Origin: a virus
Taxonomy: Duplodnaviria; Heunggongvirae; Uroviricota; Caudoviricetes
Reading direction: 5' to 3' (one strand)
Length of the DNA: 32,635 bases
Virus record (IMG/VR): IMGVR_UViG_2627853795_000005
Coordinates: 1-32,635 of that record
Shown here: positions 1 through 13,744 of the stretch, one piece after another
Layout: the number at the start of each line of letters is the position of its first letter
How positions within the stretch are numbered: the stretch's first letter is position 1
The notes under the pieces: generated by a model
The model's input: the letters and a program-made list of their open reading frames with translations, nothing else
What the model was told of the DNA's origin: nothing
Databases searched by the model: none
Position numbers and translations under genes: made by a program

Positions 1-990
1 TTATGTGGATGAAATGTGGATGCCTCCTTTTAATGGATTAAGTGAAATTGCATCCTGGAGGAAATCAGGAGCGAGGTGCGCATAGGTCATAGTTTGCTGA
101 ATCGTGGCGTGCCCCATAATTCGCTGGAGCGTAAGTATATTTCCTCCATTAATCATAAAGTGAGCTGCAAAGGTATGGCGTAGAACATGTACAGCCTGTC
201 CCTTTGGTAGGTCTGGCTTAACACTGCGAAGCACCTTGCGATATTCCTCATAATTGACGTCAAACAAAAGGCCGGATTTCTTTGTTTTGATCTCACTAAC
301 AACCTCATCAGAGACAGGAATAATTCGAACTTTTCCGTTTTTAGTTTTGTTAAACGTCACGCGATTATTGATGATGTGTTCCGCGCGCAGATTTTTCGCT
401 TCTCCCCATCTCGCCCCAGTACTGAGACAAAGTAGCGTAATCCGCCGGGCATCACCGCTTACTGCATCCAGCAATTTGGCGATTTCTTCCGTGGTGAGGT
501 ACGTCATTTCGGGTGATTTTCGTTTCAAAGAGGGGAGGGCGCGGAGTGGATTTTCTCCGTGAAATTCCCCGGCATTTGCCAGGAGTGTAAACATTCCTCC
601 GAGATCCGACTCATCACGCCGAACAGTAGATTCTTTTACTCCTAAGGATAAACGGGAGCTTCGATAAGCTGCCATGAAACGAGCATTAATCTGGCTAACC
701 CTTGGATCATTCATTTCTTTGATGATTTTTTTCAATCTGGTTAGAACGCCGTTAGCATATGGCTTATTGCGTCCACCCAATTCCCACCATAATGGAAGCA
801 GATCTGAGAGATGACGTTGCTCTGTTGGCTTTTCAAGCCATTCCTTATCGTGCATGTGGCTGAGAACATAGCGCTCAAAGGCCACTGCATCTGCCTTTTT
901 CTTAAAAATCCGCTGAATCCGACGTCCACTTCGGCCACGCGGTCTAACATCCACTTTATACCGTCCACCATCGAGTGCCTTAATTGCCAT
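1..990 (-). CDS. int: Tyrosine integrase (P2 Int-like)
   Basis: ORF 1..1023; N-terminus MAIKALDGGRYKVDVRP and C-terminal LRHTFAAHFMINGG...TLQRIMGH...YAH motifs match recalled P2 Int. Start set at internal ATG (988-990) because a GGAGGG RBS lies 8 nt upstream; the longer ORF start at 1023 has no RBS. Stop codon is at window position 1-3. Confidence 0.9.
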   Translation of the reverse strand: MAIKALDGGRYKVDVRPRGRSGRRIQRIFKKKADAVAFERYVLSHMHDKEWLEKPTEQRHLSDLLPLWWELGGRNKPYANGVLTRLKKIIKEMNDPRVSQINARFMAAYRSSRLSLGVKESTVRRDESDLGGMFTLLANAGEFHGENPLRALPSLKRKSPEMTYLTTEEIAKLLDAVSGDARRITLLCLSTGARWGEAKNLRAEHIINNRVTFNKTKNGKVRIIPVSDEVVSEIKTKKSGLLFDVNYEEYRKVLRSVKPDLPKGQAVHVLRHTFAAHFMINGGNILTLQRIMGHATIQQTMTYAHLAPDFLQDAISLNPLKGGIHISST

Positions 991-1056
991 TGGCAAGCCC
1001 TCCGGTGAAACGAGGAAAGACATTCCCAGTTTGTAAAACGTAAGAATAATAAAGGG

Positions 1057-1359
1057 TTAACCAATTTTCCTTTCGGATGGGGGTAAGTCCGTTGGCTCTT
1101 GCCCATAGTGTGCGAGAGCCGGAGCTACCTGCCCGGATTCAGGCGCAATTTTTCCAGTCATAAACCACAAGGCATATTTTTCGAACCGCGGGCAATTTAA
1201 GATTTTCATCATTACATCCCCTTTGGGTATGGATTCGCCAGTCTCATAACGCCATAGCGCGTTATGCGGAATACCTATTAACTCCGCAGCCTCATTGCGA
1301 CTTGTAATGCGCTCACTTTCACGCATTAGTTTTAGTTTTTCACCAATCTCCAAAATCAT
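1057..1359 (-). CDS. C: Immunity repressor C (P2 C-like)
   Basis: C-terminal half ...KILNCPRFEKYALWFMTGKIAPESGQVAPALAHYGQ resembles recalled P2 C (TKYTLWFMTNQIAPESGQIAPALAHFGQ). Start chosen at the ATG with a GGAGA RBS (MILEIGEKL...). Confidence 0.85.
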   Translation of the reverse strand: MILEIGEKLKLMRESERITSRNEAAELIGIPHNALWRYETGESIPKGDVMMKILNCPRFEKYALWFMTGKIAPESGQVAPALAHYGQEPTDLPPSERKIG

Positions 1360-1453
1360 ATTGCATTCTCCAAATATGTAGTGCATTATGCAAACAATGA
1401 GTTGAACTATGGGGTAAATATCTCACCTATACCCCAAACAGGGAGATTATCAC
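1360..1453. promoter_or_regulatory. C/cox developmental switch region (Pc/Pe promoters and operators expected here)
   Basis: 94-bp AT-rich intergenic region between divergently oriented C (-) and cox (+). Position is by analogy to P2; individual -35/-10 elements were not confidently resolved. Confidence 0.5.
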
Positions 1454-1780
1454 ATGAATGAAGAACTATTGAGGGCATTGTTTAAGATCCCAGACCCCAT
1501 CACCGTCGATGAATTTGCCCGCCGCACGGGCAAGACCGAATCAGCCGTAAGAAAGTTGGTGGAACGTCGGCTCATCCCTCTGGCCACTGAGCGTGAAGTT
1601 TTAGGCGAGGAAGGAAGTTCACGCCGCCTTCTCATCCTATGGAACGAGTGGCTCGAAATGGTCTATGACGCAACGAAACAACTTCCTCCTGAGCGTAAAG
1701 ATTGGCGCAATCACTGGCTTAATAAAGCCAAGAAGCTGGCGGAAGATTTGGGATTAGGCTTTCTTAATTTTGCTGCATGA
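1454..1780 (+). CDS. cox: Cox-like excisionase / transcriptional regulator
   Basis: Position immediately right of the switch region; segments ITVDEFARRTGKTESAVRKLVERRLIP and WNEWLEMVY...ERKDWRNHWL resemble recalled P2 Cox; AGGGAG RBS. Confidence 0.75.
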   Translation: MNEELLRALFKIPDPITVDEFARRTGKTESAVRKLVERRLIPLATEREVLGEEGSSRRLLILWNEWLEMVYDATKQLPPERKDWRNHWLNKAKKLAEDLGLGFLNFAA

Positions 1781-4656: not shown

Positions 4657-4976
4657 GTAACCACTATGTACACACAAAAAAACCGCTTGCCATGCCGCAA
4701 TCAGTCAGGTTACATTTTCGCTGCACCTCATAAAACGGGTGCCGGGTTTCGCAGCCTGCTGACAACCAAAGCGCACAACCGCGCCAGCGGTTTTTTTGTG
4801 CGTACTGTATTGCCACGTTTTTTTCGCGTCAGAATTATGGCGGGGCGTACGGGGCCGACTTCGGTCGGGCCGGGTTCTTTGGTTGCCGGTACTGCGAACC
4901 CCGTACGTCTCGCCACCCACAGTTTCGCAGCTCTGGATGGTGAGTTTTCAAAACTTACAACCAAAGAGGCCACACC

Positions 4977-5207
4977 ATGGCAAACCGCAAACAGCACCGC
5001 GCTATCGCGGAGCGTCGTCACATCCAGACTGAAATCAACCGCAGACTTTCCCGCGCATTCCGCGTCGCTAAAATCATGCACATCAATATGCTGCATGAGC
5101 GTAGCTGCGAACTTTCAAACCTCTACTCATCCGCTGTTTTCAGTTATCTGGCGGATGATCTGCGCGAGCTTCAGCAGCTCATCCAGCAGCAAAACAAACT
5201 CCATTAA
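4977..5207 (+). CDS. Hypothetical small protein
   Basis: 76-aa ORF with AGAGG RBS 9 nt upstream; sits directly after a highly structured non-coding stretch. Confidence 0.45.
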   Translation: MANRKQHRAIAERRHIQTEINRRLSRAFRVAKIMHINMLHERSCELSNLYSSAVFSYLADDLRELQQLIQQQNKLH

Positions 5208-5279
5208 TTCCTGTTCCGGGCCTTTCCTGCACCTTGCGGCGGGAGGCCTTCGCACATCTGTAACAAGAGGATTGCCGCA

Positions 5280-5645
5280 ATGATTCTCGCCAACGACTTT
5301 CTTGAATACCTGCTCAACACAGAGCGTGATCTTGCCGTTCGCGTGCGTGAACGTTATGACATGTACCTGAAATCCCTGCCTGTACCGCAGCTCGCTGACG
5401 GAAAGATTGTTATTGATGGTCGCTACATGATTGACAGCCACGAGGGAAATTACAGGCTTTACCGCATTGAAGGTGGCACTCCGTCCGTTATTGGCATTTA
5501 CCAGCGCCCATCCTCTGCAATCGTCGATGTGATTGCCGACAGCATCCGCATCACACATCGCTATGCCGACACAGAAGACACCGTGCTGGAAATTCAGCGG
5601 CTGGCTGCCGTTTGCCGTGACACCCTGAACGGTATGACGCAGTAA
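5280..5645 (+). CDS. Hypothetical protein just upstream of the replication gene
   Basis: 121-aa ORF with AGAGGA RBS; 6-bp gap to A. Confidence 0.6.
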   Translation: MILANDFLEYLLNTERDLAVRVRERYDMYLKSLPVPQLADGKIVIDGRYMIDSHEGNYRLYRIEGGTPSVIGIYQRPSSAIVDVIADSIRITHRYADTEDTVLEIQRLAAVCRDTLNGMTQ

Positions 5646-5651
5646 ATCAGT

Positions 5652-8474
5652 ATGACGACAGAGTACATCAGGGACTGGCAACAACCGCGCCACGCAGTGG
5701 GGCGTGAAGGAACGGGGATCCCCGCACCTGAATCCGCGCTTTCCTCCTGGCTGGATGCCTACCAAGCAGAGAACGAGCGCCGACAGGAAAAGGCTGATGC
5801 GGCGTTCTCTGCCACGCCACTGGGCAACCTGATTAATAAAAGCCTGGACGCACAGGAAAAACAGGACAAAACCATCACGCTGGCAGGAGACGCCAGAAGA
5901 CAGGCACGCGGCACGGTGGATGAAGCCATGGCCTCGCTGCGCCTGCTGCCGTCCTATCTGCGCGATCCGCTTATTCGCCACCTCTCCTTCCTGCGCAAAA
6001 AACAGGAAGTCGATCGCCGGAAAGGCAAAAAGAGCTGGCAGGCGGAACGCTATGCACGCGGAACCCTGCGCAAAATATTCGAACGTCTGGATCGCACTGA
6101 CGGACACTGGCTGACACCGGGTTATCGCTCCCTTGCCGGACGCGAACGCCTGGACGATTTGCTTTACCTGCCGCAGCTCAACAAACACCAGATACAGACG
6201 CTGGCCACCATGACGGCGGCGATGTTCAGCAGCACCTTCGAAAAACTCTGCGATGGCTTTGGTGCGACTGATGGCGAGCTGACCATGGATGTAACGCTGA
6301 AGGCGTATCAGATGCTGGCCCGCATGGCGTTACACCTGCACGCCATGCCTCCGCATTATGACGCACTGACAACAGACAAAGACCGGAGGAACGAACCAGA
6401 CACGGAGCTGCTGCCGGGCGCAATCCTTCGCCTGACCTGTGCGGAATGGTGGAAACGCAAACTGTGGCTGTTACGTTGCGAGTGGAGAGAAGAACAACTC
6501 CGCGCCGCCTGTCTGGTTTCCAGAAAAACATCGCCCTATCTGAGCCAGGATGCGTTAAGCGAGTTTCGCGCACAGCGCGAGAAAACACGCGATTTCCTGA
6601 AAAGTTTCATGCTGGAAAACGAAGACGGGTTCACGATTGATCTTGAGACAGTGTATTACGCGGGAGTAAGTAACCCGGTTCACCGTAAGGCAGAAATGAT
6701 GGCCACCATGAAGGGGCTGGAACTTCTGGCCGAAGCCCGTGGCGACAGAGCGGTGTTTCTGACTGTCACCTGCCCGTCAAAATACCACGCAACAACGGAG
6801 AACGGTCATCCGAATCCCAAATGGAACGGGGCCACTATGCGCGACTCCAGCGATTACCTGGTTAACTCGTTTTTTGCGGCGGTCCGCAAGAAACTGAACC
6901 GCGACGGCCTGCGCTGGTATGGCATCCGCACGGTGGAGCCTCACCATGACGGCACCGTGCACTGGCATATGATGGTCTTTGCTCATCCGGAAGAAATCGA
7001 CACCATTGTGTCCCACACCCGCGATATTGCCATTCAGGAAGATCGTCACGAGCTGGGTGATGATATTACCCCACGCTTTAAGGCAGAGTACGTCGACGGC
7101 TCAAAAGGCACACCGACCAGCTACATCGCCACCTACATCGGGAAAAACCTGGACAGCCGTGCCGTGGATGGCATCGACCCGAAAACGGGCAAGCCACGCG
7201 TTGACCACGAAACAGGTAAATCAATGGCCGAGAGCGTGGAGCGTGCCATCGGCTGGGCGCGCCTTCACCGGGTCCGCCAGTTCCAGTTCTTTGGCATCCC
7301 CTCCCGTCAGGTGTGGCGTGAACTCCGCCGCCTTGCCAGCCAGATGGCACGCAACCCGGAAGGCCCGCAACGGCTGAAGGATGACGCAATGGATGCGGTA
7401 CTCGCTGCCGCTGATGCCGGATGTTTTGCCACCTACATTGAAAAACAGGGGGGCGTACTTGTTCCGCGCAAGGACTACCTGATTCGCACAGCCTACGACC
7501 TCGCAGATGAGCTGAACGATTACGGCGAGCAGAGTGTACAGATTTACGGGATCTGGTCGCCGCTCATTGGGGAGTCTTCCCGCGTATGCACGCATCCGGA
7601 TAACTGGAAGCTGGTAAGACGCAAACCGGAAGCGGAAGACAGCGCCCGCGAAAATGGTTTTGACCTTCAGGGCGGCCCTGCCGCCCCTTGGACTCGTGGC
7701 AATAACTGTCCCCGTGTACAGGAAACAGGCAACAACGGGACAGAACAGCCGGAAGAACGGCCAGCACCGTGGCCGCAGCTTCCTGACGGCGTTGAAGTAA
7801 ATGAATGGATGCGCTCACTGAAACGGCACGAACGCCGGGCGCTGATGCGTTCGCTTCGTGACAAACAGGCAAAAAACAGCAGCGATGAAATGCAGAACTG
7901 GACACAGAGCCGCAAACAGCAGCGGCCTTTGCCTGATAACCACGAGTTACTCGCTAAAGAATGGCGGGAGTCTGCTGAATCTCTCGGCCTGCATATCGGT
8001 GAACAACAGATGCAGCACCTGTTACGGGGCGGCAGTCTGTACGTTGACGGCAGCATCATTGCACCGCAGGGATTTGAAATTGTACGCAAACCGGATACCC
8101 GCCCGGACAGCCGAATCACGCAGCTCTGGCAGCGTCTGAGCCGTAATCATGGCGTAAGCAGCACGGAGATCCGCCATAACCCGGTCGCCAGCTATCTGGC
8201 ACAGCTGGGGGCATCAGACCCTGAAGCCGCCGCACGCCTGGCATCCACACTTCAGCAGGACCAGAACACCATGAAAACACCCGTTACCGTGCTTTCTGAC
8301 ATGCTGCGCGCCATCCGCGACGCAGAGCACGCACAGAGAATCAGTGAAACCACTGAACGCGCCAGCCGCAAAGCAGACCTGCTGCGGGGTGGCCTGACCA
8401 GTGGAAACAAAAAACAGACAGAAACGGGACTCACGAATCCCGTAAATGAGCAAAAAACGCGCAGCGATATATGA
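5652..8474 (+). CDS. A: Replication initiation endonuclease gpA (HUH rolling-circle initiator), with a long C-terminal extension
   Basis: 940-aa ORF; metal-binding motif HWHMMVFAH and paired catalytic tyrosines in YIATYIGK (Y-x3-Y), as in the P2 gpA family; synteny. Longer than my recollection of P2 gpA. Confidence 0.9.
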   Translation: MTTEYIRDWQQPRHAVGREGTGIPAPESALSSWLDAYQAENERRQEKADAAFSATPLGNLINKSLDAQEKQDKTITLAGDARRQARGTVDEAMASLRLLPSYLRDPLIRHLSFLRKKQEVDRRKGKKSWQAERYARGTLRKIFERLDRTDGHWLTPGYRSLAGRERLDDLLYLPQLNKHQIQTLATMTAAMFSSTFEKLCDGFGATDGELTMDVTLKAYQMLARMALHLHAMPPHYDALTTDKDRRNEPDTELLPGAILRLTCAEWWKRKLWLLRCEWREEQLRAACLVSRKTSPYLSQDALSEFRAQREKTRDFLKSFMLENEDGFTIDLETVYYAGVSNPVHRKAEMMATMKGLELLAEARGDRAVFLTVTCPSKYHATTENGHPNPKWNGATMRDSSDYLVNSFFAAVRKKLNRDGLRWYGIRTVEPHHDGTVHWHMMVFAHPEEIDTIVSHTRDIAIQEDRHELGDDITPRFKAEYVDGSKGTPTSYIATYIGKNLDSRAVDGIDPKTGKPRVDHETGKSMAESVERAIGWARLHRVRQFQFFGIPSRQVWRELRRLASQMARNPEGPQRLKDDAMDAVLAAADAGCFATYIEKQGGVLVPRKDYLIRTAYDLADELNDYGEQSVQIYGIWSPLIGESSRVCTHPDNWKLVRRKPEAEDSARENGFDLQGGPAAPWTRGNNCPRVQETGNNGTEQPEERPAPWPQLPDGVEVNEWMRSLKRHERRALMRSLRDKQAKNSSDEMQNWTQSRKQQRPLPDNHELLAKEWRESAESLGLHIGEQQMQHLLRGGSLYVDGSIIAPQGFEIVRKPDTRPDSRITQLWQRLSRNHGVSSTEIRHNPVASYLAQLGASDPEAAARLASTLQQDQNTMKTPVTVLSDMLRAIRDAEHAQRISETTERASRKADLLRGGLTSGNKKQTETGLTNPVNEQKTRSDI

Positions 8475-8522
8475 AGCGCGCACAAAACAGGCAAAAACGG
8501 GATTTCAGAATCCCGTAAACGA
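8411..8522. repeat. Two about 39-bp direct repeats (period 73 bp), each with a 6-bp-stem hairpin (acggga / tcccgt), spanning the A stop and the parM upstream region
   Basis: Read directly: 8411..8449 aaaacagacagaaacgggactcacgaatcccgtaaatga and 8484..8522 aaaacaggcaaaaacgggatttcagaatcccgtaaacga. Confidence 0.7.
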
Positions 8523-8550
8523 TTAATTAATCAACATAAGGAAAACCGAC

Positions 8551-9510
8551 ATGAAAATTTACATCGACGACGGCTCCACCAACATCAAGCTGGCATGGAC
8601 TGAGAACGGCGAACGCCGCAACGCCATCAGCCCGAACAGCTTCAAGTCGGAATGGTCTGCGCCGTTCGGTGGCTCGCAGCCTGCTAACTACATGCTTGAT
8701 GGCGTGCGCTATGGTTTTGATCCGGTCAGCGATCGCTTTGTCCAGACGACCGACACGCAATACCAGTACAGCGATGTGAATGTCATTGCCATTCATCACG
8801 CGCTGGTCAAATCAGACATCACGCCACAGGAAGTGGATGTGGTTGTTACCCTGCCACTGAGCGAATATTTCGACACAAACGCACAGCCGGACATGGCCAA
8901 CATCAACCGCAAAAAAGCGAACGTCATGCGCCCGGTGGAGTACCAGAACGGCGAAGCATTCACTATCCGTAACGTACGGGTTATGCCTGAATCCATTCCG
9001 GCTGGCTTTAAAGCACTGGCTGACATGAGTCCGTTTGAATCCCTGCTGATTGTGGATTTGGGCGGAACCACGCTGGATGTGGCAAAGGTTCAGGGGCAAC
9101 TGGCAGGTATCAGCCAGGTGTTTTGCGATCCACACGTAGGCGTTTCTCTTATGGCCGATGCCGTACTGTCGGTGATGGCCACTAACGGTATGCGCACCAG
9201 TCACCACATCGCCAATACCATTATCGAACATCGCCATAATGAAGCCTGGCTGCGCCAGCACATCCACAATGACGCGCATTACGCCAGCCTGATGGCGGTT
9301 ATTCGTGAAAAGGAAGAAACACTGAAACAACGCGTGATCCGCGCGCTGGCGGTTTTTTCGGGTTACGGGCGGGTGATGGTTGTCGGTGGCGGGGCGGAGA
9401 TTGTGGCACCCGCTATCCGCGAAGCCTGCGGAGTTAATGCGACTTTCATCGCGGACGGGGTGCCACAGTTTGCTCTGGTTAATGGGCTGTACGCAATGGA
9501 CAAGGAGTAA
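8551..9510 (+). CDS. parM: ParM/StbA-like actin-type segregation ATPase
   Basis: N-terminal IDDGSTNIKL motif, ISPNSF, QYSDVNV..HHAL, MPESIPAG, DLGGTTLD, GGGAE and LVNG blocks co-linear with recalled plasmid R1 ParM; AAGGAAAA RBS. Confidence 0.8.
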   Translation: MKIYIDDGSTNIKLAWTENGERRNAISPNSFKSEWSAPFGGSQPANYMLDGVRYGFDPVSDRFVQTTDTQYQYSDVNVIAIHHALVKSDITPQEVDVVVTLPLSEYFDTNAQPDMANINRKKANVMRPVEYQNGEAFTIRNVRVMPESIPAGFKALADMSPFESLLIVDLGGTTLDVAKVQGQLAGISQVFCDPHVGVSLMADAVLSVMATNGMRTSHHIANTIIEHRHNEAWLRQHIHNDAHYASLMAVIREKEETLKQRVIRALAVFSGYGRVMVVGGGAEIVAPAIREACGVNATFIADGVPQFALVNGLYAMDKE

Positions 9511-9514
9511 ACCA

Positions 9515-9826
9515 ATGACGACACCAACCAGACGGATAAGTTTCTATCTGAAGCCCGCCGCCGTCAAGAACGAAGGAGAAGCATGCGCCTGGCTGGACAG
9601 CCTTACACCAGAAGCCCGCAAAAGCGGCCAACGCGTGGCTTTTCTGGCCGGGCTGGCACTTCTGAAGACGAATCCGGCAGAGGCTTACCGACTGGCCGCA
9701 TGGGCTGATGATGAGATGTTACCTGTGACACAAATCAGCTCAAAAAAGTTTGAAGCACAGTCTGCACCAGTGGCTAAGATAACCAGCCAGATGGCTGGGA
9801 ATATCCGGGCGTTATTTCCTGAGTAA
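9515..9826 (+). CDS. parR: ParR-like adaptor / DNA-binding protein
   Basis: Directly downstream of parM (5-bp gap) with AAGGAG RBS; N-terminus RRISFYLKP and AFLAGLAL, C-terminal IRALFPE resemble recalled R1 ParR blocks; size about 100 aa. Confidence 0.6.
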   Translation: MTTPTRRISFYLKPAAVKNEGEACAWLDSLTPEARKSGQRVAFLAGLALLKTNPAEAYRLAAWADDEMLPVTQISSKKFEAQSAPVAKITSQMAGNIRALFPE

Positions 9827-9946
9827 AAGCATCTGCGCGAAAAATGCTCACGTTTATAGAGACAGTATCATTCCATTTGGCACACTTACTTCAATAATCG
9901 ATCTGTTAAACAAATAGATTGTCTATTATCTATCGATTAAAACGAT

Positions 9947-10011
9947 CAATTATCTTGACAGTAATGTGCCTTTTTGTAAGATCGTTCGCATTGTGAGCGA
10001 CAAGATAATTG
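9947..10011 (+). promoter_or_regulatory. Candidate sigma70 promoter bracketed by a perfect 11-bp inverted repeat (putative operators)
   Basis: TTGACA at 9955-9960 with TAAGAT about 16 bp downstream; CAATTATCTTG at 9947-9957 and its reverse complement CAAGATAATTG at 10001-10011. Confidence 0.45.
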
Positions 10012-10088
10012 CGCGGCATTGTCCATGCAAAACGCCCCAATAGCAGCAACTATTGGGGCGTAAAACTCGGTCGGACTCACTTAACCTG

Positions 10089-10174
10089 ATATGCGTGCCT
10101 TCCGAAGTAAATCAAAATGTGCGTCGTATATTTTATTGCTTACACGCACCTCTGTAAAGGCACGCATATTTTTC
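10089..10174 (+). promoter_or_regulatory. Long leader stem-loop (13-bp perfect inverted repeat) followed by a T-run, immediately upstream of the RBS of ORF 10191: candidate attenuator or cis-regulatory RNA
   Basis: ATATGCGTGCCTT at 10089-10101 pairs with AAGGCACGCATAT at 10157-10169, then TTTT; nested 6-bp inverted repeat gtgcgt/acgcac inside. Confidence 0.4.
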
Positions 10175-10190
10175 CTATGAGGTAAATAAA

Positions 10191-10460
10191 GTGCGGGCTA
10201 AAACAGGTATTTGCAAGAACCCTCATCGTTATAATCCAACATTTCTGTCTCTCCCTGAATATCAAGGACAAGAAGGTCGGCACAAATGCGCTGCCTGTGC
10301 TTTTGAGCTAGGCATAAAAGATGCGCTTGAAGGACGCGCTATGGCTCAGAATGATTTAGTTTTAGCTAACATTCCGTTTAGCCAGGCTGGAACTGTAAGG
10401 CACAGAGATGCCTATGAAGCATATGTTCGTGGTTGGCGATTAATAAACAGCAACAATTGA
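10191..10460 (+). CDS. Small Cys/His-containing protein of unknown function (hotspot cargo)
   Basis: 89-aa ORF with GTG start and GAGGT RBS 8 nt upstream; motif CKNPHRY...RHKCAACAFELG suggests possible metal binding; a strong intrinsic terminator follows the stop. Confidence 0.55.
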   Translation: MRAKTGICKNPHRYNPTFLSLPEYQGQEGRHKCAACAFELGIKDALEGRAMAQNDLVLANIPFSQAGTVRHRDAYEAYVRGWRLINSNN

Positions 10461-10468
10461 TACTTTTG

Positions 10469-10492
10469 AAGCGCCGATAAGGCGCTTTTTTT
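10469..10492 (+). terminator. Rho-independent terminator after ORF 10191..10460
   Basis: aagcgcc-gataa-ggcgctt stem-loop followed by a T7 run. Confidence 0.8.
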
Positions 10493-10493
10493 G

Positions 10494-10660
10494 TTTGCAC
10501 GATAGTGCACAAGTTTGCACAATTTTTTTGAACGACTTTTTGTACTTCCGGCCCGCGTGGTGGCTGGATCCGTCAAGGATCCGTACGTGCACAAAAAAAC
10601 GCGTTTTTTCTGCGCGCAGGTGACGGGGGAACAGCCCGCGTTTCAGAGGGTAAATAGCAT
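10494..10660. other. Candidate cos region (terminase recognition and cohesive-end site)
   Basis: Non-coding stretch downstream of Q with TTTGCAC x2, GGATCCGT x2, GTGCAC x2 and a 16-bp perfect palindrome AAAAAACGCGTTTTTT (10594-10609); GGTGACGGGGGAACAGCCC (10619-10637) loosely resembles the recalled P2/186 cohesive end (GGCGAGGCGGGGAAAGCAC). Exact cut sites not determinable. Confidence 0.35.
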
Positions 10661-10896
10661 CCCCTGAACGATGTCGCAGCGACACAACAGAATGGCTGTA
10701 TTTCTCACGCTGAGCGTGAAAAAGACGTGAGGGCTTTTGATTTGATGGGGTGGAAAATAAGGCCGTCAAAATCGCACTGAGGCGGCGAGAACATGCAGTC
10801 AGCGCAGTGGGATTGCGTAAGAGTCTGACCATCGATGATGGCAATAAGCAGGAAAGCGTCGTGAAATTATCTGATTGATACAGGAGCTGGAGAGTC

Positions 10897-10919
10897 GGGG
10901 CATAAATTTTTTATGCCCC
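10897..10919 (-). terminator. Perfect 10-bp-stem palindrome downstream of Q (possible terminator of the P-Q operon or packaging-related element)
   Basis: ggggcataaa-ttt-tttatgcccc, 27 bp beyond the Q stop codon. Confidence 0.3.
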
Positions 10920-10946
10920 GGCGAAGCAGCAGACAAGCGAAGCGCG

Positions 10947-11993
10947 TCAGGATGTGGGCTGGGTGTCTAACAGTGCGTAAGGGTTAAAGCGGATCACCTC
11001 TTCGCCAAGCCAGTCATTGATGTGCTTCATGGCCTCCATGACGGGCATCAGCTCGTTAATTGCGTAAACCCGCGCGGCCTTCTCCACATCACCAAACGCA
11101 CTTTTTTCACCCGGCATCGCCCCCATCAGTTGCGGCGGAACGCGGTGCGCAGCCAGCACATCATCACGGGATGCCGCCTTAACATTCATGAACTCATCCT
11201 TTGCGGTGATCTGCTGGAACGGCAAAATTTGCACCCCCTCTTTGCCCCCGTTGGGCGCATGAATGAGCACGTTTTTAAACGCACCACCACCACGTGCCCC
11301 CTGTAGCGTTTCTTTCAGGGAGTCCATGCTTTCGCGGTTTACCTGCGCTGCACCGATGTAGATGATGCACCCGGCGTGGGATCCGTTGTCGTAATACAGT
11401 TTTCTGAACATGTCCGCCGAATGAGACAGGCTGGCCGAGAGTAATGCGCCAAGATATTCCGGCATGCCGTAGATTTCCTGGTTAATATCCGGATTCATCA
11501 GGTGGCACACTTTGCCAGGGCGAAACTGGAACGCGTCCTTGCCATCCTGCACATACCACCATGATTCAAGATCGCTTCCGCGTCGCATGTATTTCGCCAG
11601 GGCGTGCCGTAATTTAAGCGGTTCACCGAGCATATTGCTTCGAAGCTCAAGGAATGCGTTACCGAACACAAACCAGTCCAGCGCCAGCGCCGAGAAATCC
11701 TGCCGGGAAAGCAGCGGGTGCGGAATATAGCAACCGAGCAATACATTGCGCTTAAAGTAAAGCGCAGACTGATGCCAGGACGTTTGCCGGGCAGCTCTTG
11801 CCAGACCGTACCAGTCCACCGGGGTTTCATACCACCGCCCGTTATCAGCACAGTACATATTGTCCAGCAGGTCATGCCCGGTCAGGCGATAAGGACCATC
11901 AAATGTGAATGCACTGAGCGATGATTCTTTCCTGAGCGCATCAGCGAGATCAATGCGTGAACTCATGCGCACTTTTTTATTTTTTCTGCTCAT
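10947..11993 (-). CDS. Q: Portal protein gpQ
   Basis: 348-aa ORF, size and position (between cos and terminase, leftward) as for P2 gpQ; start overlaps the P stop. Confidence 0.85.
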   Translation of the reverse strand: MSRKNKKVRMSSRIDLADALRKESSLSAFTFDGPYRLTGHDLLDNMYCADNGRWYETPVDWYGLARAARQTSWHQSALYFKRNVLLGCYIPHPLLSRQDFSALALDWFVFGNAFLELRSNMLGEPLKLRHALAKYMRRGSDLESWWYVQDGKDAFQFRPGKVCHLMNPDINQEIYGMPEYLGALLSASLSHSADMFRKLYYDNGSHAGCIIYIGAAQVNRESMDSLKETLQGARGGGAFKNVLIHAPNGGKEGVQILPFQQITAKDEFMNVKAASRDDVLAAHRVPPQLMGAMPGEKSAFGDVEKAARVYAINELMPVMEAMKHINDWLGEEVIRFNPYALLDTQPTS

Positions 11994-13744
11994 CAGAACT
12001 CCATAACCGTGAAACGCTCGTTTTCTCCTTCGCCGCCAATCGGTTCGTTAATGACAGCAAGCATGGTCGCCCACGCAAGGTCGCCGTGGCTGATCCCCCT
12101 CGCGCGGTCCGTTTCGTAAGTGATAAAGCCGCCCGGTGTTTTCACCTTACGCACGGCGTTAAAGGCCGCGACCAGTTCGCGTTCGGCGCGATCGTATTCC
12201 CACCGCCCGGCACGCATTATTTGCAGCATTTTCAGTACCAGCGACCGTTTTGATGACAGCGTGAAGGTGTACGGAATAGCAGCAGGGAAAAACCGTTTCA
12301 CTATCTGATAAACAGCCTCCCCGTTCCCGCCCGTCACATCAATGCCGATGTGTTCCACGTTGTAGCGACACGTGAACTCTTCAATGACTCTGGCCTGTTC
12401 TTCAAACTCCAGCCCCTGAACGCGTCGCGTCTCCACCGTTCGAAAACGGCCACCAGGAACAGCCGGAGGAACCACCACGGACACCGCGCCGCTGTCGCCG
12501 TTGCCACTGCTGCCGTTTGCGTCATACCCAATCCATACCGGACGATTTCCCATCGGACGGGGAGCAAAAGGTTTCCAGTCTTTCCAGTCGTCGTATCCGT
12601 CAACGCCGCAGCCAATCAGGATATTCAGGTTAAATGCCGATTCCCCTTCGCGGACAAACTCACACATGTAGAGATTGAGGAACTCGTCTTCGGTGTTTTC
12701 ATCGCGGATTTCGTCAATATCGGTGTGTTTCCAGCCGTGATTAACCACATCTTCCAGCGTGACAATCTGCCGCCATGTCCGGTCAGGGCAGATAAGTCCG
12801 TTATGCAGCGTTTTCCAGTCCACAGAAAAACGCTGGCGTTTATGCGAGGCCTTTTTCTCGTTCCAGCGGTCGCCGTTCCAGTAGGCGTATGCCTCGTGCG
12901 TTTCGGTGGATGGCGTGGAGAAGTAGGTGCGCCGCAGTCCGCTGAGGGTTGCCATAGCGCCAGCCACCTTACGCAGTTCAGCAAAGCGACTGACCCAGAA
13001 AAATTCATCAAAATAAAAATTGCCCGTATAGGACTGTGCCGACGCAGCAGAAGTGCCGAGAAAATGCAGCTCTGCGCCGTTGGAGAGGATGATTTTATCG
13101 CCCCCTTTCAGCTCCACATCAACTTCAGCCGCGGCCTTCTGAATAATGCTTTTAAACTGGAACGCCTGACGACGCGACGCAGACAAAAAAATCTGGTTAC
13201 GCTGGTAAGGTTGCGCCACATCGTCACGCAGCGCCATCAGCAGAGCTTCCTGTGCAAAATACCAGGTCGCCCCAATCTGTCGGGATTTCAGGATCATCCT
13301 GTTACGTATCCCGGCTTCCCTGCAAAGGGTCAGGGAGTCAAACCAGCCCCGCTGATGCCACTCCAGCCTGCTGATGATTTTTTCCCGCAGTGCGGCAATC
13401 TGTTCCGGCGTGAAATGATTTTTGAGTTTTTTCGCCCGGCCTTTCTTTCCTGCGGCCATCACATCCGGCTGACCATCATGCAGCTTTTTAAGCTGCCGGG
13501 TCAGCAGGTCTATTTCCTTAAAGTCACCGCCTGTTTTATTCTGTTTTTCAGTAAGCTGGATGAGGCGCGCATCGATGGACTGCGTGACACGCTGCACGGG
13601 TGGCGTTTCATCCCACTGGTCGCGTTTTTTCCACGCATAAATCGTGTTCGGGTTTATTCCCATCAGACGTGATATTTCTGCGGGCGGATAACCCTGCCAG
13701 TAAAGTTGCCGCGCACGCTGGCGCACAAAAGCGTCCTGAATCAT
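11993..13744 (-). CDS. P: Terminase large (ATPase) subunit gpP
   Basis: 583-aa ORF; N-terminal ...QLYWQGYPPAEISRLMGINPNTIYAWKKRDQWDE matches recalled P2 gpP; divergent from O. Confidence 0.9.
   Translation of the reverse strand: MIQDAFVRQRARQLYWQGYPPAEISRLMGINPNTIYAWKKRDQWDETPPVQRVTQSIDARLIQLTEKQNKTGGDFKEIDLLTRQLKKLHDGQPDVMAAGKKGRAKKLKNHFTPEQIAALREKIISRLEWHQRGWFDSLTLCREAGIRNRMILKSRQIGATWYFAQEALLMALRDDVAQPYQRNQIFLSASRRQAFQFKSIIQKAAAEVDVELKGGDKIILSNGAELHFLGTSAASAQSYTGNFYFDEFFWVSRFAELRKVAGAMATLSGLRRTYFSTPSTETHEAYAYWNGDRWNEKKASHKRQRFSVDWKTLHNGLICPDRTWRQIVTLEDVVNHGWKHTDIDEIRDENTEDEFLNLYMCEFVREGESAFNLNILIGCGVDGYDDWKDWKPFAPRPMGNRPVWIGYDANGSSGNGDSGAVSVVVPPAVPGGRFRTVETRRVQGLEFEEQARVIEEFTCRYNVEHIGIDVTGGNGEAVYQIVKRFFPAAIPYTFTLSSKRSLVLKMLQIMRAGRWEYDRAERELVAAFNAVRKVKTPGGFITYETDRARGISHGDLAWATMLAVINEPIGGEGENERFTVMEF

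Follow-up and report, generated by a model that had tools for sequence, protein, structure and literature searches.

A replaceable ParM/ParR module with candidate centromere dyads next to gpA in a P88-like prophage

The prophage analysed here carries, directly downstream of its replication gene gpA, a genuine type II, R1-like ParM/ParR pair, as judged from the predicted products of the two genes. By comparison with relatives, the pair belongs to an exchangeable unit of about 8375–9826, delimited here for the first time, which includes two 25-bp dyad repeats and which P88-like and other P2-like phages typically carry as an accessory, though replaceable, module. The module as such is already known: it is common, annotated, catalogued and has been commented on in the literature. 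As for its role, we put at about even chances that the cassette is a complete R1-type ParMRC-like unit that acts on non-integrated circular phage DNA, rather than serving a stable plasmid prophage.

The window, by which we mean the whole stretch of DNA analysed (32,635 nt), is a P88-like (Xuanwuvirus, Peduoviridae) P2-like prophage. As the earlier note had stated, this is an integrating phage with its switch intact; a tyrosine integrase, an HTH repressor and Cox are encoded at 1–1780. Integration has been reported for both P88 and phiSM, as have plaques and lysogeny on laboratory E. coli. The parMR pair lies between gpA and the portal gene, and this slot is the gpA–gpQ hotspot of P2 (the tin/old locus) defined by Rousset et al. 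2022. A gap of 76 nt separates the gpA stop from the parM start, and parMR points the same way as the early replication operon. The coordinates are collected in Table 1.

Table 1. Features of the parMR module and its surroundings (window coordinates)
Feature	Position	Strand	Remarks
gpA (rolling-circle initiator)	5652–8474		
Left-hand boundary of the exchangeable unit	8358–8374		Falls within the final ~35 gpA codons
Repeat unit 1, 42 nt, candidate parC site 1	8408–8449	+	In the gpA 3' end; direct repeat D1, inverted repeat I1
Unit 1 dyad, CGGGACT-CACG-AATCCCG	8425–8442		
Repeat unit 2, 42 nt, candidate parC site 2, possibly operator	8481–8522	+	Intergenic
Unit 2 perfect dyad, CGGGATT-TCAG-AATCCCG	8498–8515		
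parM, actin-fold partition ATPase, 319 aa	8551–9510	+	Pfam StbA_N and ParM C-terminal domain; R1 ParM in the PDB
parR, putative centromere-binding adaptor, 103 aa	9515–9826	+	Pfam Plasmid_stab_B; alignment with R1 ParR and relatives; pB171 ParR match
Right boundary of the module (parR stop codon)	9826		Homology among cargo variants ends there
Portal and terminase genes	10947–13744		

The 319-residue frame described in the earlier note, with its IDDGSTNIKL, DLGGTTLD and GGGAE blocks, is present exactly where it had been placed, and its similarity to the ParM family lies far beyond chance. The protein matches both Pfam StbA_N (E = 9.7e-81; 269.8 bits against a cut-off of 24.6) and the Pfam ParM C-terminal domain (E = 3e-68; 229.3 bits against a cut-off of 27.4) from end to end, with the whole profile covered in each case. 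The alignment with R1 ParM structures (1mwk among them; E = 7.7e-92) also spans the entire protein, which is, again over its full length, 46% identical to R1-type ParM. A residue-by-residue comparison with 1mwk found the phosphate 1 (DDGSTN), phosphate 2 (DLGGTTLD) and adenosine (GGGAE) motifs, as well as MPESIPAG, to be identical in R1 ParM. Across seven P88-like copies, the dN/dS of parM is about 0.08 (range 0.05–0.15), a value that speaks for strong purifying selection on the gene.

The ParR-like frame of about 100 residues that had been noticed right after parM encodes 103 residues; its ATG lies 4 nt past the parM stop, with AAGGAG as the Shine-Dalgarno sequence. Here, too, the family assignment held, the product matching Pfam Plasmid_stab_B (the StbB/ParR family) with an E-value of 9.8e-24. 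As a single sequence, it gave no match in the PDB; a ParR profile that included the window protein matched the solved pB171 ParR (2jd3) with an E-value of 3.7e-14. Residues 1–66 form a conserved N-terminal part, presumably the one that binds DNA, which is homologous to the ribbon-helix-helix ParR family. Among 26 alleles, residues 67–94 are a hypervariable linker, and the C-terminal tail, xNIRALFPE, is invariant or nearly so. In the alignment, this tail coincides with the C-terminal end of R1 ParR, and we take it to be the ParM-binding part, as in the R1 ParM–ParR peptide complex. Identity to R1 ParR, whose reference sequence as used here recurs unchanged (100% identity) in over 1000 plasmid records, is 26%; the alignable parts are the N-terminal segment and, at the C-terminus, the xNAxxL tail, and the linker of the window protein is about 15–30 residues shorter than that of R1 ParR. 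An AlphaFold2 monomer of the window ParR (mean pLDDT 57) has predicted helices at residues 20–29, 32–52, 54–61 and 87–100. The N-terminal strand (residues 6–13) is unformed in this low-confidence model, which would be no surprise in an obligate dimer.

The limits of the cassette are set by two kinds of relatives. Two P88-type prophages that have no parMR agree with the window at 95% as far as the left boundary in Table 1 (positions 808–824 of the query, which spanned 7551–9510), and then diverge completely. At the other end, the homology among cargo variants stops exactly at the parR stop codon, for which reason a centromere 3' of parR was rejected. Since homology to the parMR-less relatives ends just before the first dyad and homology to the cargo variants goes no further than the parR stop, any cis site has to fall within 8375–8550.

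This interval holds two dyad-bearing units that lie 73 bp apart, the second 53 nt upstream of the parM start codon. They are the only significant repeats within the module boundaries; the 25-nt dyad pattern occurs twice in the window, as opposed to 0 expected, and the dyad repeat is absent from relatives without parMR. In eight relatives, the dyad arms are conserved or nearly invariant, and changes mostly fall in the central 4 nt. Furthermore, a CGGG-N10-CCC(G/A) dyad is located 56–60 nt upstream of parM in a Plesiomonas and a Hafnia prophage, and the ParR of these two prophages has an N-terminal segment nearly identical to that of the window ParR. The two dyads upstream of parM are the best parC candidate on this comparative evidence, and ParR would be the protein that binds them.

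The same elements may also act as RNA. Both dyads resemble intrinsic terminators on the minus strand, with an 8-bp stem ahead of a run of U residues; in copy 1, an imperfect pair of the dyad becomes a G-U pair on the minus-strand RNA only. At the equivalent place, two other relatives (L016 and L017) have a long inverted repeat that leads into a stretch of U residues. The pattern of variation among the eight relatives fits a protein-binding site and an RNA hairpin alike.

Compared with ParMRC of R1/R100 (StbA/StbB), the module has the same order of cis region, parM and parR, and the same gap of only a few nucleotides between the two genes. The cis regions are unlike each other. R1 parC is composed of ten direct 11-bp A/C-rich iterons that flank the promoter, whereas the candidate consists of two 18-bp dyads, one of which is inside the upstream gene, with no convincing promoter of its own. 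A consensus scan, which is a weak method, identified no candidate promoter upstream of parM scoring at least 8 of 12; the same kind of scan, equally weak, identified no terminator-like site on the plus strand between about 4900 and 10468. The carriers differ as well, in that R1/R100 ParMRC resides on a low-copy plasmid and the window pair in an integrating P2-like phage.

The module had been suspected of being an undescribed system within a slot of variable cargo; it is neither undescribed nor itself rare, variable cargo. The same genes are annotated as ParM or partition protein in P88, phiSM, 520873 and others, with 94–98% nucleotide identity. In P88, phiSM and other Xuanwuvirus members, ParM is 97–98% identical and parMR occupies the same place after gpA; only the ParR linker allele and the cargo downstream of parR are different. 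The module genes are covered by PHROG families 691 and 2515 (an NCBIfam search, with no match above the cut-off, was uninformative), and Rousset et al. 2022 recorded a putative plasmid partitioning system in roughly one in four P2-like prophages of E. coli. Nor is the module rare, since 1304 of the 5426 complete E. coli genomes surveyed carry it; an actin-type segregation machine of an integrating phage is, in other words, found in about a quarter of them. It adjoins gpA in at least 88% (1266 of 1437) of the E. coli genomes that have this gpA 3' end.

The variable cargo begins only after the parR stop and runs to the portal gene, which is a new observation. Relative to the P2 hotspot as a whole, parMR is thus the conserved, gpA-proximal part, as opposed to the fast-changing, mostly defence-like cargo that fills the stretch from parR to the portal gene. 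Among the genes found after the module, or in place of it, in relatives are one for an AAA ATPase, whose matches are PtuA/GajA-like, and one for a KAP NTPase that matches PDC-S20. Also new is that diverged ParMR pairs are located in the same gpA–portal slot of P2-like prophages from Plesiomonas, Hafnia, Serratia and Enterobacter. The pair thus occupies this slot even in prophages whose gpA is only 29–55% and whose portal protein only 30–46% identical. The earlier note had proposed a survey of the slot, and had counted it against its own reading if the pair proved to be a conserved core gene of the lineage with a known replication role. The presence of diverged ParMR in these four further genera means that the pair is, in part, such a lineage-conserved module, although about 5–10% of close relatives have parMR swapped for other cargo.

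A role on non-integrated circular DNA is suggested by three features taken together, namely the co-orientation with the replication operon, the lack of a recognisable plus-strand terminator and the almost invariable integration of the prophage. We propose that parMR is expressed together with gpA, probably on one transcript, after infection or induction. ParR dimers would bind the two dyads, and the conserved C-terminal tail of ParR would capture the ends of ATP-dependent ParM filaments. The growing filaments would push circular phage genomes apart, and replicating genomes might in this way be dispersed or segregated before integration or packaging. That some function is maintained is supported, at the level of sequence, by the low dN/dS of parM and by the persistence of the pair in one slot despite the divergence of gpA and the portal gene. 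Having raised the possibility of such a role, we would note that parMR is dispensable, given the close relatives that lack it and the truncated parM clusters found on long contigs.

An alternative is that the phage leads a dual life, being able both to integrate and to persist as a low-copy episome inherited via ParMRC. The earlier note had raised episomal maintenance, and the idea is already in print, as the remark that the module could permit plasmid-like maintenance (Pfeifer 2021; Rousset et al. 2022). It draws support from the close homology to plasmid ParMR, from the 47% identical ParM of the P1-like plasmid prophage D6, and from a 34,461-bp circular record in PLSDB, pZ1323PEC0009-2, which consists of a whole P88-like phage and has a 99.9% identical counterpart that is chromosomal in a sister strain. 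The genomic locations point the other way. In complete E. coli genomes, 1450 parMR places are chromosomal versus 2 on plasmids, and the one plasmid place that was inspected turned out to be an integrated prophage within a plasmid of 129 kb. ParMRC would be expected on an autonomous low-copy replicon, and 1450 of these 1452 places are chromosomal. The lone circular record could equally represent excised phage replicating in an induced subpopulation. Close homologues of the Hafnia- or Serratia-type phage ParM were found in no plasmid record of PLSDB. Among the early-region ORFs tested, gpA was the sole replication protein recognised, and no plasmid-type replication gene was seen. In P2 lysogens, expression of gpA is repressed. 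With its integrase, repressor and Cox, gpA as the only replication protein recognised among those ORFs and overwhelmingly chromosomal locations, the element does not look like a typical phage-plasmid, the circular record apart, and we regard the dual life as unlikely.

The remaining two alternatives appear less probable still. The module might serve competition rather than its own segregation, with ParR/parC or ParM hindering related phages or plasmids that have a related centromere. Its slot is where P2-like phages hold anti-phage cargo, defence-like genes replace or follow it in relatives, and ParR alleles are many. However, ParM, ParR and the product of the downstream orf89 match no PADLOC family at E ≤ 0.01, so that the defence role suggested earlier finds no support either; the variation of ParR is confined to the linker, with its N-terminus, its tail and the dyad arms essentially invariant, which is the opposite of diversifying specificity; and a full ParM ATPase machinery is kept under purifying selection. 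We consider exclusion improbable, and hold much the same opinion of the proposal that the cassette is a plasmid-derived hitchhiker, kept by its linkage to gpA and useless to the phage, with the dyads serving as leftward terminators. The latter would explain why some 5–10% of close relatives manage without the cassette, why parM is truncated in places, and why the dyads fold like minus-strand terminators, but it sits poorly with the constraint measured on parM, the intact ATPase motifs, the ParR tail conserved in all 26 alleles, and a pair that has kept its slot while the flanking core genes diverged to 30–55% identity.

For the role on circular phage DNA that we favour, the best functional model by analogy may be the AlpC/AlpA pair (AlpACS) of the Corynebacterium glutamicum prophage CGP3. 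This is likewise an actin-like filament former with a DNA-binding adaptor in an integrated prophage; the two proteins are reported to be required for efficient viral DNA replication and to support the transport of viral DNA, as opposed to plasmid inheritance. AlpC belongs to a different actin-like family, in a Gram-positive host, and its function has been shown by experiment, whereas the window module is known from sequence. More tentatively, and with somewhat less confidence than in the general role, we suggest that the P88-like ParMRC might be a small viral cytoskeleton, not a plasmid-maintenance device, that is made along with the early replication proteins and moves or separates monomeric circles derived from rolling-circle replication, or the single infecting genome when the cell divides. 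If so, it would raise the burst size or the efficiency of lysogenisation, a widespread 33-kb temperate phage of E. coli would routinely possess actin-based genome positioning, and the centromere would consist of two dyads, partly embedded in the replication gene. Were the role confirmed, small temperate coliphages would join jumbo phages and CGP3 among the carriers of phage cytoskeletons, and it would become clearer whether P2-like phages pass through an episomal phase.

In the phage collection searched, the only other phage record with a ParM homologue was D6, whose protein is of the StbA type. This 91-kb element is a plasmid prophage, for which a partition system is expected, and the window element integrates. 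The phage ParMs cluster together in a neighbour-joining tree, an unsupported grouping that might reflect a single ancestral capture by P2-like phages. However, for the Serratia-type ParM, identity to some plasmid ParMs (60–61%) is no lower than identity to the P88 type (58%). As a sign that ParM is made in lysogens, the published O157:H7 proteome offered no usable entry on the partition proteins of CP-933T. Carriers of parMR among E. coli include the O157:H7, O104:H4 and ST131 lineages.

The window is a P2-like prophage, and by profile comparison the gene pair that follows its replication initiator gpA is securely identified as R1-type ParM/ParR, as an earlier note had proposed for 8551–9826. 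ParM gives end-to-end matches to two Pfam domains, StbA_N (E 9.7e-81) and the C-terminal domain of ParM (E 3e-68), and the crystal structure of plasmid R1 ParM (1mwk) aligns with it over its full length at E 7.7e-92. Identity with R1-type ParM is 46%, and the phosphate-1 (IDDGSTNIKL), phosphate-2 (DLGGTTLD) and adenosine (GGGAE) segments of R1 ParM, as well as MPESIPAG, are identical in the window protein. For ParR, the Pfam match is to Plasmid_stab_B (StbB/ParR; E 9.8e-24). A search of solved structures with the single ParR sequence gave no match; a profile of eight ParRs, including that of the window, matched pB171 ParR (2jd3) at E 3.7e-14. The AlphaFold2 monomer of ParR, of low confidence (pLDDT 57), places three helices in the N-terminal part and one at the C-terminus, separated by a disordered stretch. 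In PHROGs, each protein falls in a 'partition protein' family.

Features of the parMR region and its surroundings in the window
Feature	Position	Strand	Remarks
Tyrosine integrase, HTH repressor, Cox	1-1780		integration switch intact
Ash-family ORF	4666-5283		early region
isrK Rfam match	4723-4797	+	65.9 bits
C4 antisense RNA Rfam match	4833-4920	+	87.1 bits
gpA replication initiator	5652-8474		940 aa; Pfam Phage_GPA spans only residues 179-503
Repeat unit 1	8408-8449		42 nt; contains dyad 1
Repeat unit 2	8481-8522		42 nt; contains dyad 2
parM	8551-9510	+	319 aa
parR	9515-9826	+	103 aa; start 4 nt past parM stop; AAGGAG Shine-Dalgarno
Variable cargo	9827-10946		
Inverted repeat, 11 bp	9947-9957 / 10001-10011		brackets the sigma70-like promoter
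Sigma70-like promoter	9955-9982	+	TTGACA-16-TAAGAT
Perfect 12-bp hairpin	10032-10061		
Promoter-like site	10158-10130	-	
orf89	10191-10460		PHROG 3941
Terminator	10468-10488	+	after orf89
Portal and terminase genes	10947-13744		

The DNA of the region is 94–98% identical to Escherichia phage P88, Citrobacter phage phiSM, 520873, 503458 and other Xuanwuvirus (Peduoviridae), in whose records the genes are already labelled ParM and partition protein, and 1304 of 5426 complete E. coli genomes carry the module. Thus, the earlier note was right about the family and the slot but wrong to call the system undescribed and unexpected, and the parMR finding itself is already known. What is new here comprises the module boundaries, a dyad candidate centromere, the cross-genus synteny, a selection estimate and a chromosome-versus-plasmid census; the remaining interest lies in the biology of a very common module. 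Apart from those of the P88/phiSM-type Xuanwuvirus group, the only ParM homologue among 50,697 phage records was that of D6, a P1-like plasmid prophage (47% identity).

With the 3′ kilobase of gpA plus parM as query, 1437 genomes were matched, both parts being contiguous in 1266 of them (88%). parMR is missing from a minority of very near relatives (gpA 88–96% identical), in which the slot is filled by a Dam methylase together with an AAA ATPase, or else by three genes for hypothetical proteins. Their homology to the window ends at 8358–8374, just before the first repeat unit, and both units are missing there. At the right edge, homology among phages with differing downstream genes breaks off precisely with the stop codon of parR (9826), and each relative examined has different genes beyond it: orf89 in the window, three genes in ST131 strain MNCRE44, a ClpX-zinc-finger set in pCREC455-3, HicAB in Serratia and a KAP NTPase in Enterobacter. 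Because of these two homology edges and the differing cargo, we regard parMR as a discrete unit of ~1.45 kb (8375–9826). It is the gpA-proximal part of the gpA–portal hotspot, with fast-changing cargo beyond parR. The last ~35 codons of gpA lie within the exchangeable module, so that the C-terminal tail of the initiator varies with the cargo.

In relatives, the slot is occupied by genes that look defence-like from their matches. In a P88-type prophage without parMR (L019, 6113–8673), the Dam methylase accompanies a 565-aa AAA ATPase with PtuA/GajA/AriA-like matches, and the Enterobacter KAP NTPase, directly after parR (L017, 7411–8757), matches the PADLOC candidate PDC-S20 at E 8.9e-72. The true variable cargo of the window prophage includes an AT-rich spacer of 364 bp, whose hairpin and minus-strand promoter-like site hint at a possible small antisense RNA. 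The family of orf89 is one of unknown function, and its Pfam match is sub-threshold only.

ParM homologues with 53–62% identity were traced to contigs of Plesiomonas, Hafnia, Serratia and Enterobacter. All four ParMs lie between gpA and portal of P2-like prophages, with a ParR gene next and then variable cargo, so that the slot holds ParMR in four other genera. The flanking core genes diverge far more than ParM (gpA 29–55% identity, portal 30–46%). In Escherichia albertii NBRC 107761, gpA and ParM are 98–99% identical to those of the window and portal and terminase only 30–35%, a clear sequence signature of mosaic exchange, with the junction between the early/parMR region and another P2-like structural module. 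A Dickeya ParM (48% identity) lies within a conjugative element, and the other relatives at ~50% identity have no phage genes nearby. Phage-borne ParMs cluster together in a neighbour-joining tree without support values; since the Serratia-type ParM is equally near to some plasmid ParMs (60–61%) and to the P88 type, phages may have captured parMR once or several times.

Across seven P88-like copies, parM is under strong purifying selection (dN/dS 0.05–0.15, median 0.08). ParR occurs as many alleles, and the 26 aligned show little or no variation in residues 1–66 and in the final eight (xNIRALFPE), with a hypervariable stretch at 67–94. The C-terminal end of R1 ParR (comparison sequence 100% identical over 117 aa in >1000 plasmid records), presumably the part touching ParM in the R1 complex structure, lines up with this tail.

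The only significant repeats inside the module boundaries are the two 42-nt units, each with an 18-bp dyad, CGGGA(C/T)T-N4-AATCCCG, at a spacing of 73 bp. Dyad 1 lies inside the last gpA codons and dyad 2 53 nt upstream of the parM ATG. In eight relatives, the dyad arms are nearly invariant and the central four bases variable. Dyads of the form CGGG-N10-CCC(G/A) occur in the equivalent place in the relatives from Plesiomonas (two copies, 72 bp apart) and Hafnia, whose ParR has a nearly identical N-terminal segment (TRRISFYL/TRRVSFYL). With somewhat better than even confidence, we take the two dyads as the best candidate for parC, the site bound by ParR in R1-type systems. Three points count against the parC reading. 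R1 parC has another form, ten direct 11-bp A/C-rich iterons around a promoter. On the minus strand, each dyad would fold into a hairpin of 8 bp with a U-rich run behind it, as in an intrinsic terminator. In the relatives from Serratia and Enterobacter, the same place is taken by a long inverted repeat and then a U-run.

The gpA–parM gap is 76 nt. No plus-strand terminator-like site was predicted between ~4900 and 10468, the first being that after orf89, and a relaxed promoter scan upstream of parM reached 7/12 at best; the same scan, run on R1 parC, picked out a plausible promoter (8/12) at its centre. These features are a weak indication that transcription of the early replication operon continues into parMR.

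Complete E. coli genomes have the module at 1450 chromosomal places versus 2 on plasmids; of the latter, the one inspected proved to be an integrated prophage within a 129-kb plasmid. In PLSDB, a few large plasmids or mislabelled replicons carry integrated copies, and plasmid records yielded no ParM closely homologous to the phage ParMs of Hafnia or Serratia type. Integration has been reported for P88 and phiSM. The action would most likely be canonical, whereby centromere-bound ParR would capture elongating ParM filaments, and these would drive DNA molecules apart. As to the target, we favour, with evenly balanced confidence, circular phage DNA in non-integrated phases, after infection or induction, because the module is overwhelmingly chromosomal, the integration switch is intact, the place next to the replication initiator is conserved, a terminator or promoter between gpA and parM is apparently lacking, and purifying selection is strong. 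AlpAC, the actin-like filament former and adaptor of the integrated Corynebacterium glutamicum prophage CGP3, would be an analogue.

Stable plasmid lysogeny is an alternative already raised in the literature: P88 was considered a putative phage-plasmid owing to its partition genes, with episomal and integrative states suggested (Pfeifer et al. 2021). Rousset et al. 2022 recorded a putative partitioning system of plasmid type in about a quarter of E. coli P2-like prophages. One circular PLSDB record of 34,461 bp from a cat isolate (NZ_CP148288.1, pZ1323PEC0009-2) comprises an entire P88-like phage, closed at its integrase end, and might represent either a real episome or the assembly of an excised circle. 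In human isolate Z1323HEC0067 of the same series, a phage 99.9% identical to it sits in the chromosome. Beside the chromosomal census, we consider stable plasmid lysogeny unlikely. A role in exclusion or incompatibility would suit a slot with defence-like genes in relatives, but no PADLOC model matched ParM or ParR (or orf89), and we hold it to be improbable. Equally improbable is a functionless relic. Truncated ParM clusters (P0009, 229 aa, 649 members; P0017, 188 aa, 555 members) on contigs up to megabase length do point to recurrent parM decay in some prophage lineages, alongside the purifying selection on intact copies. The phiSM gene is among the fitness factors listed by Magaziner et al. 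2019; a published experimental test of the parMR role was not found in the literature.

On a 226-kb contig that bears the name of a Gram-positive bacterium, Vagococcus sp. WN89Y, lies a P88-like prophage (ParM 97%, portal/terminase 98–99.7% identical), probably through contamination or mislabelling of the assembly. The isrK and C4 matches, both above the gathering score, fall in the 5′ part of the Ash-family ORF, and the pair may represent a P1/P7-like antisense control element inside a P2-like phage.
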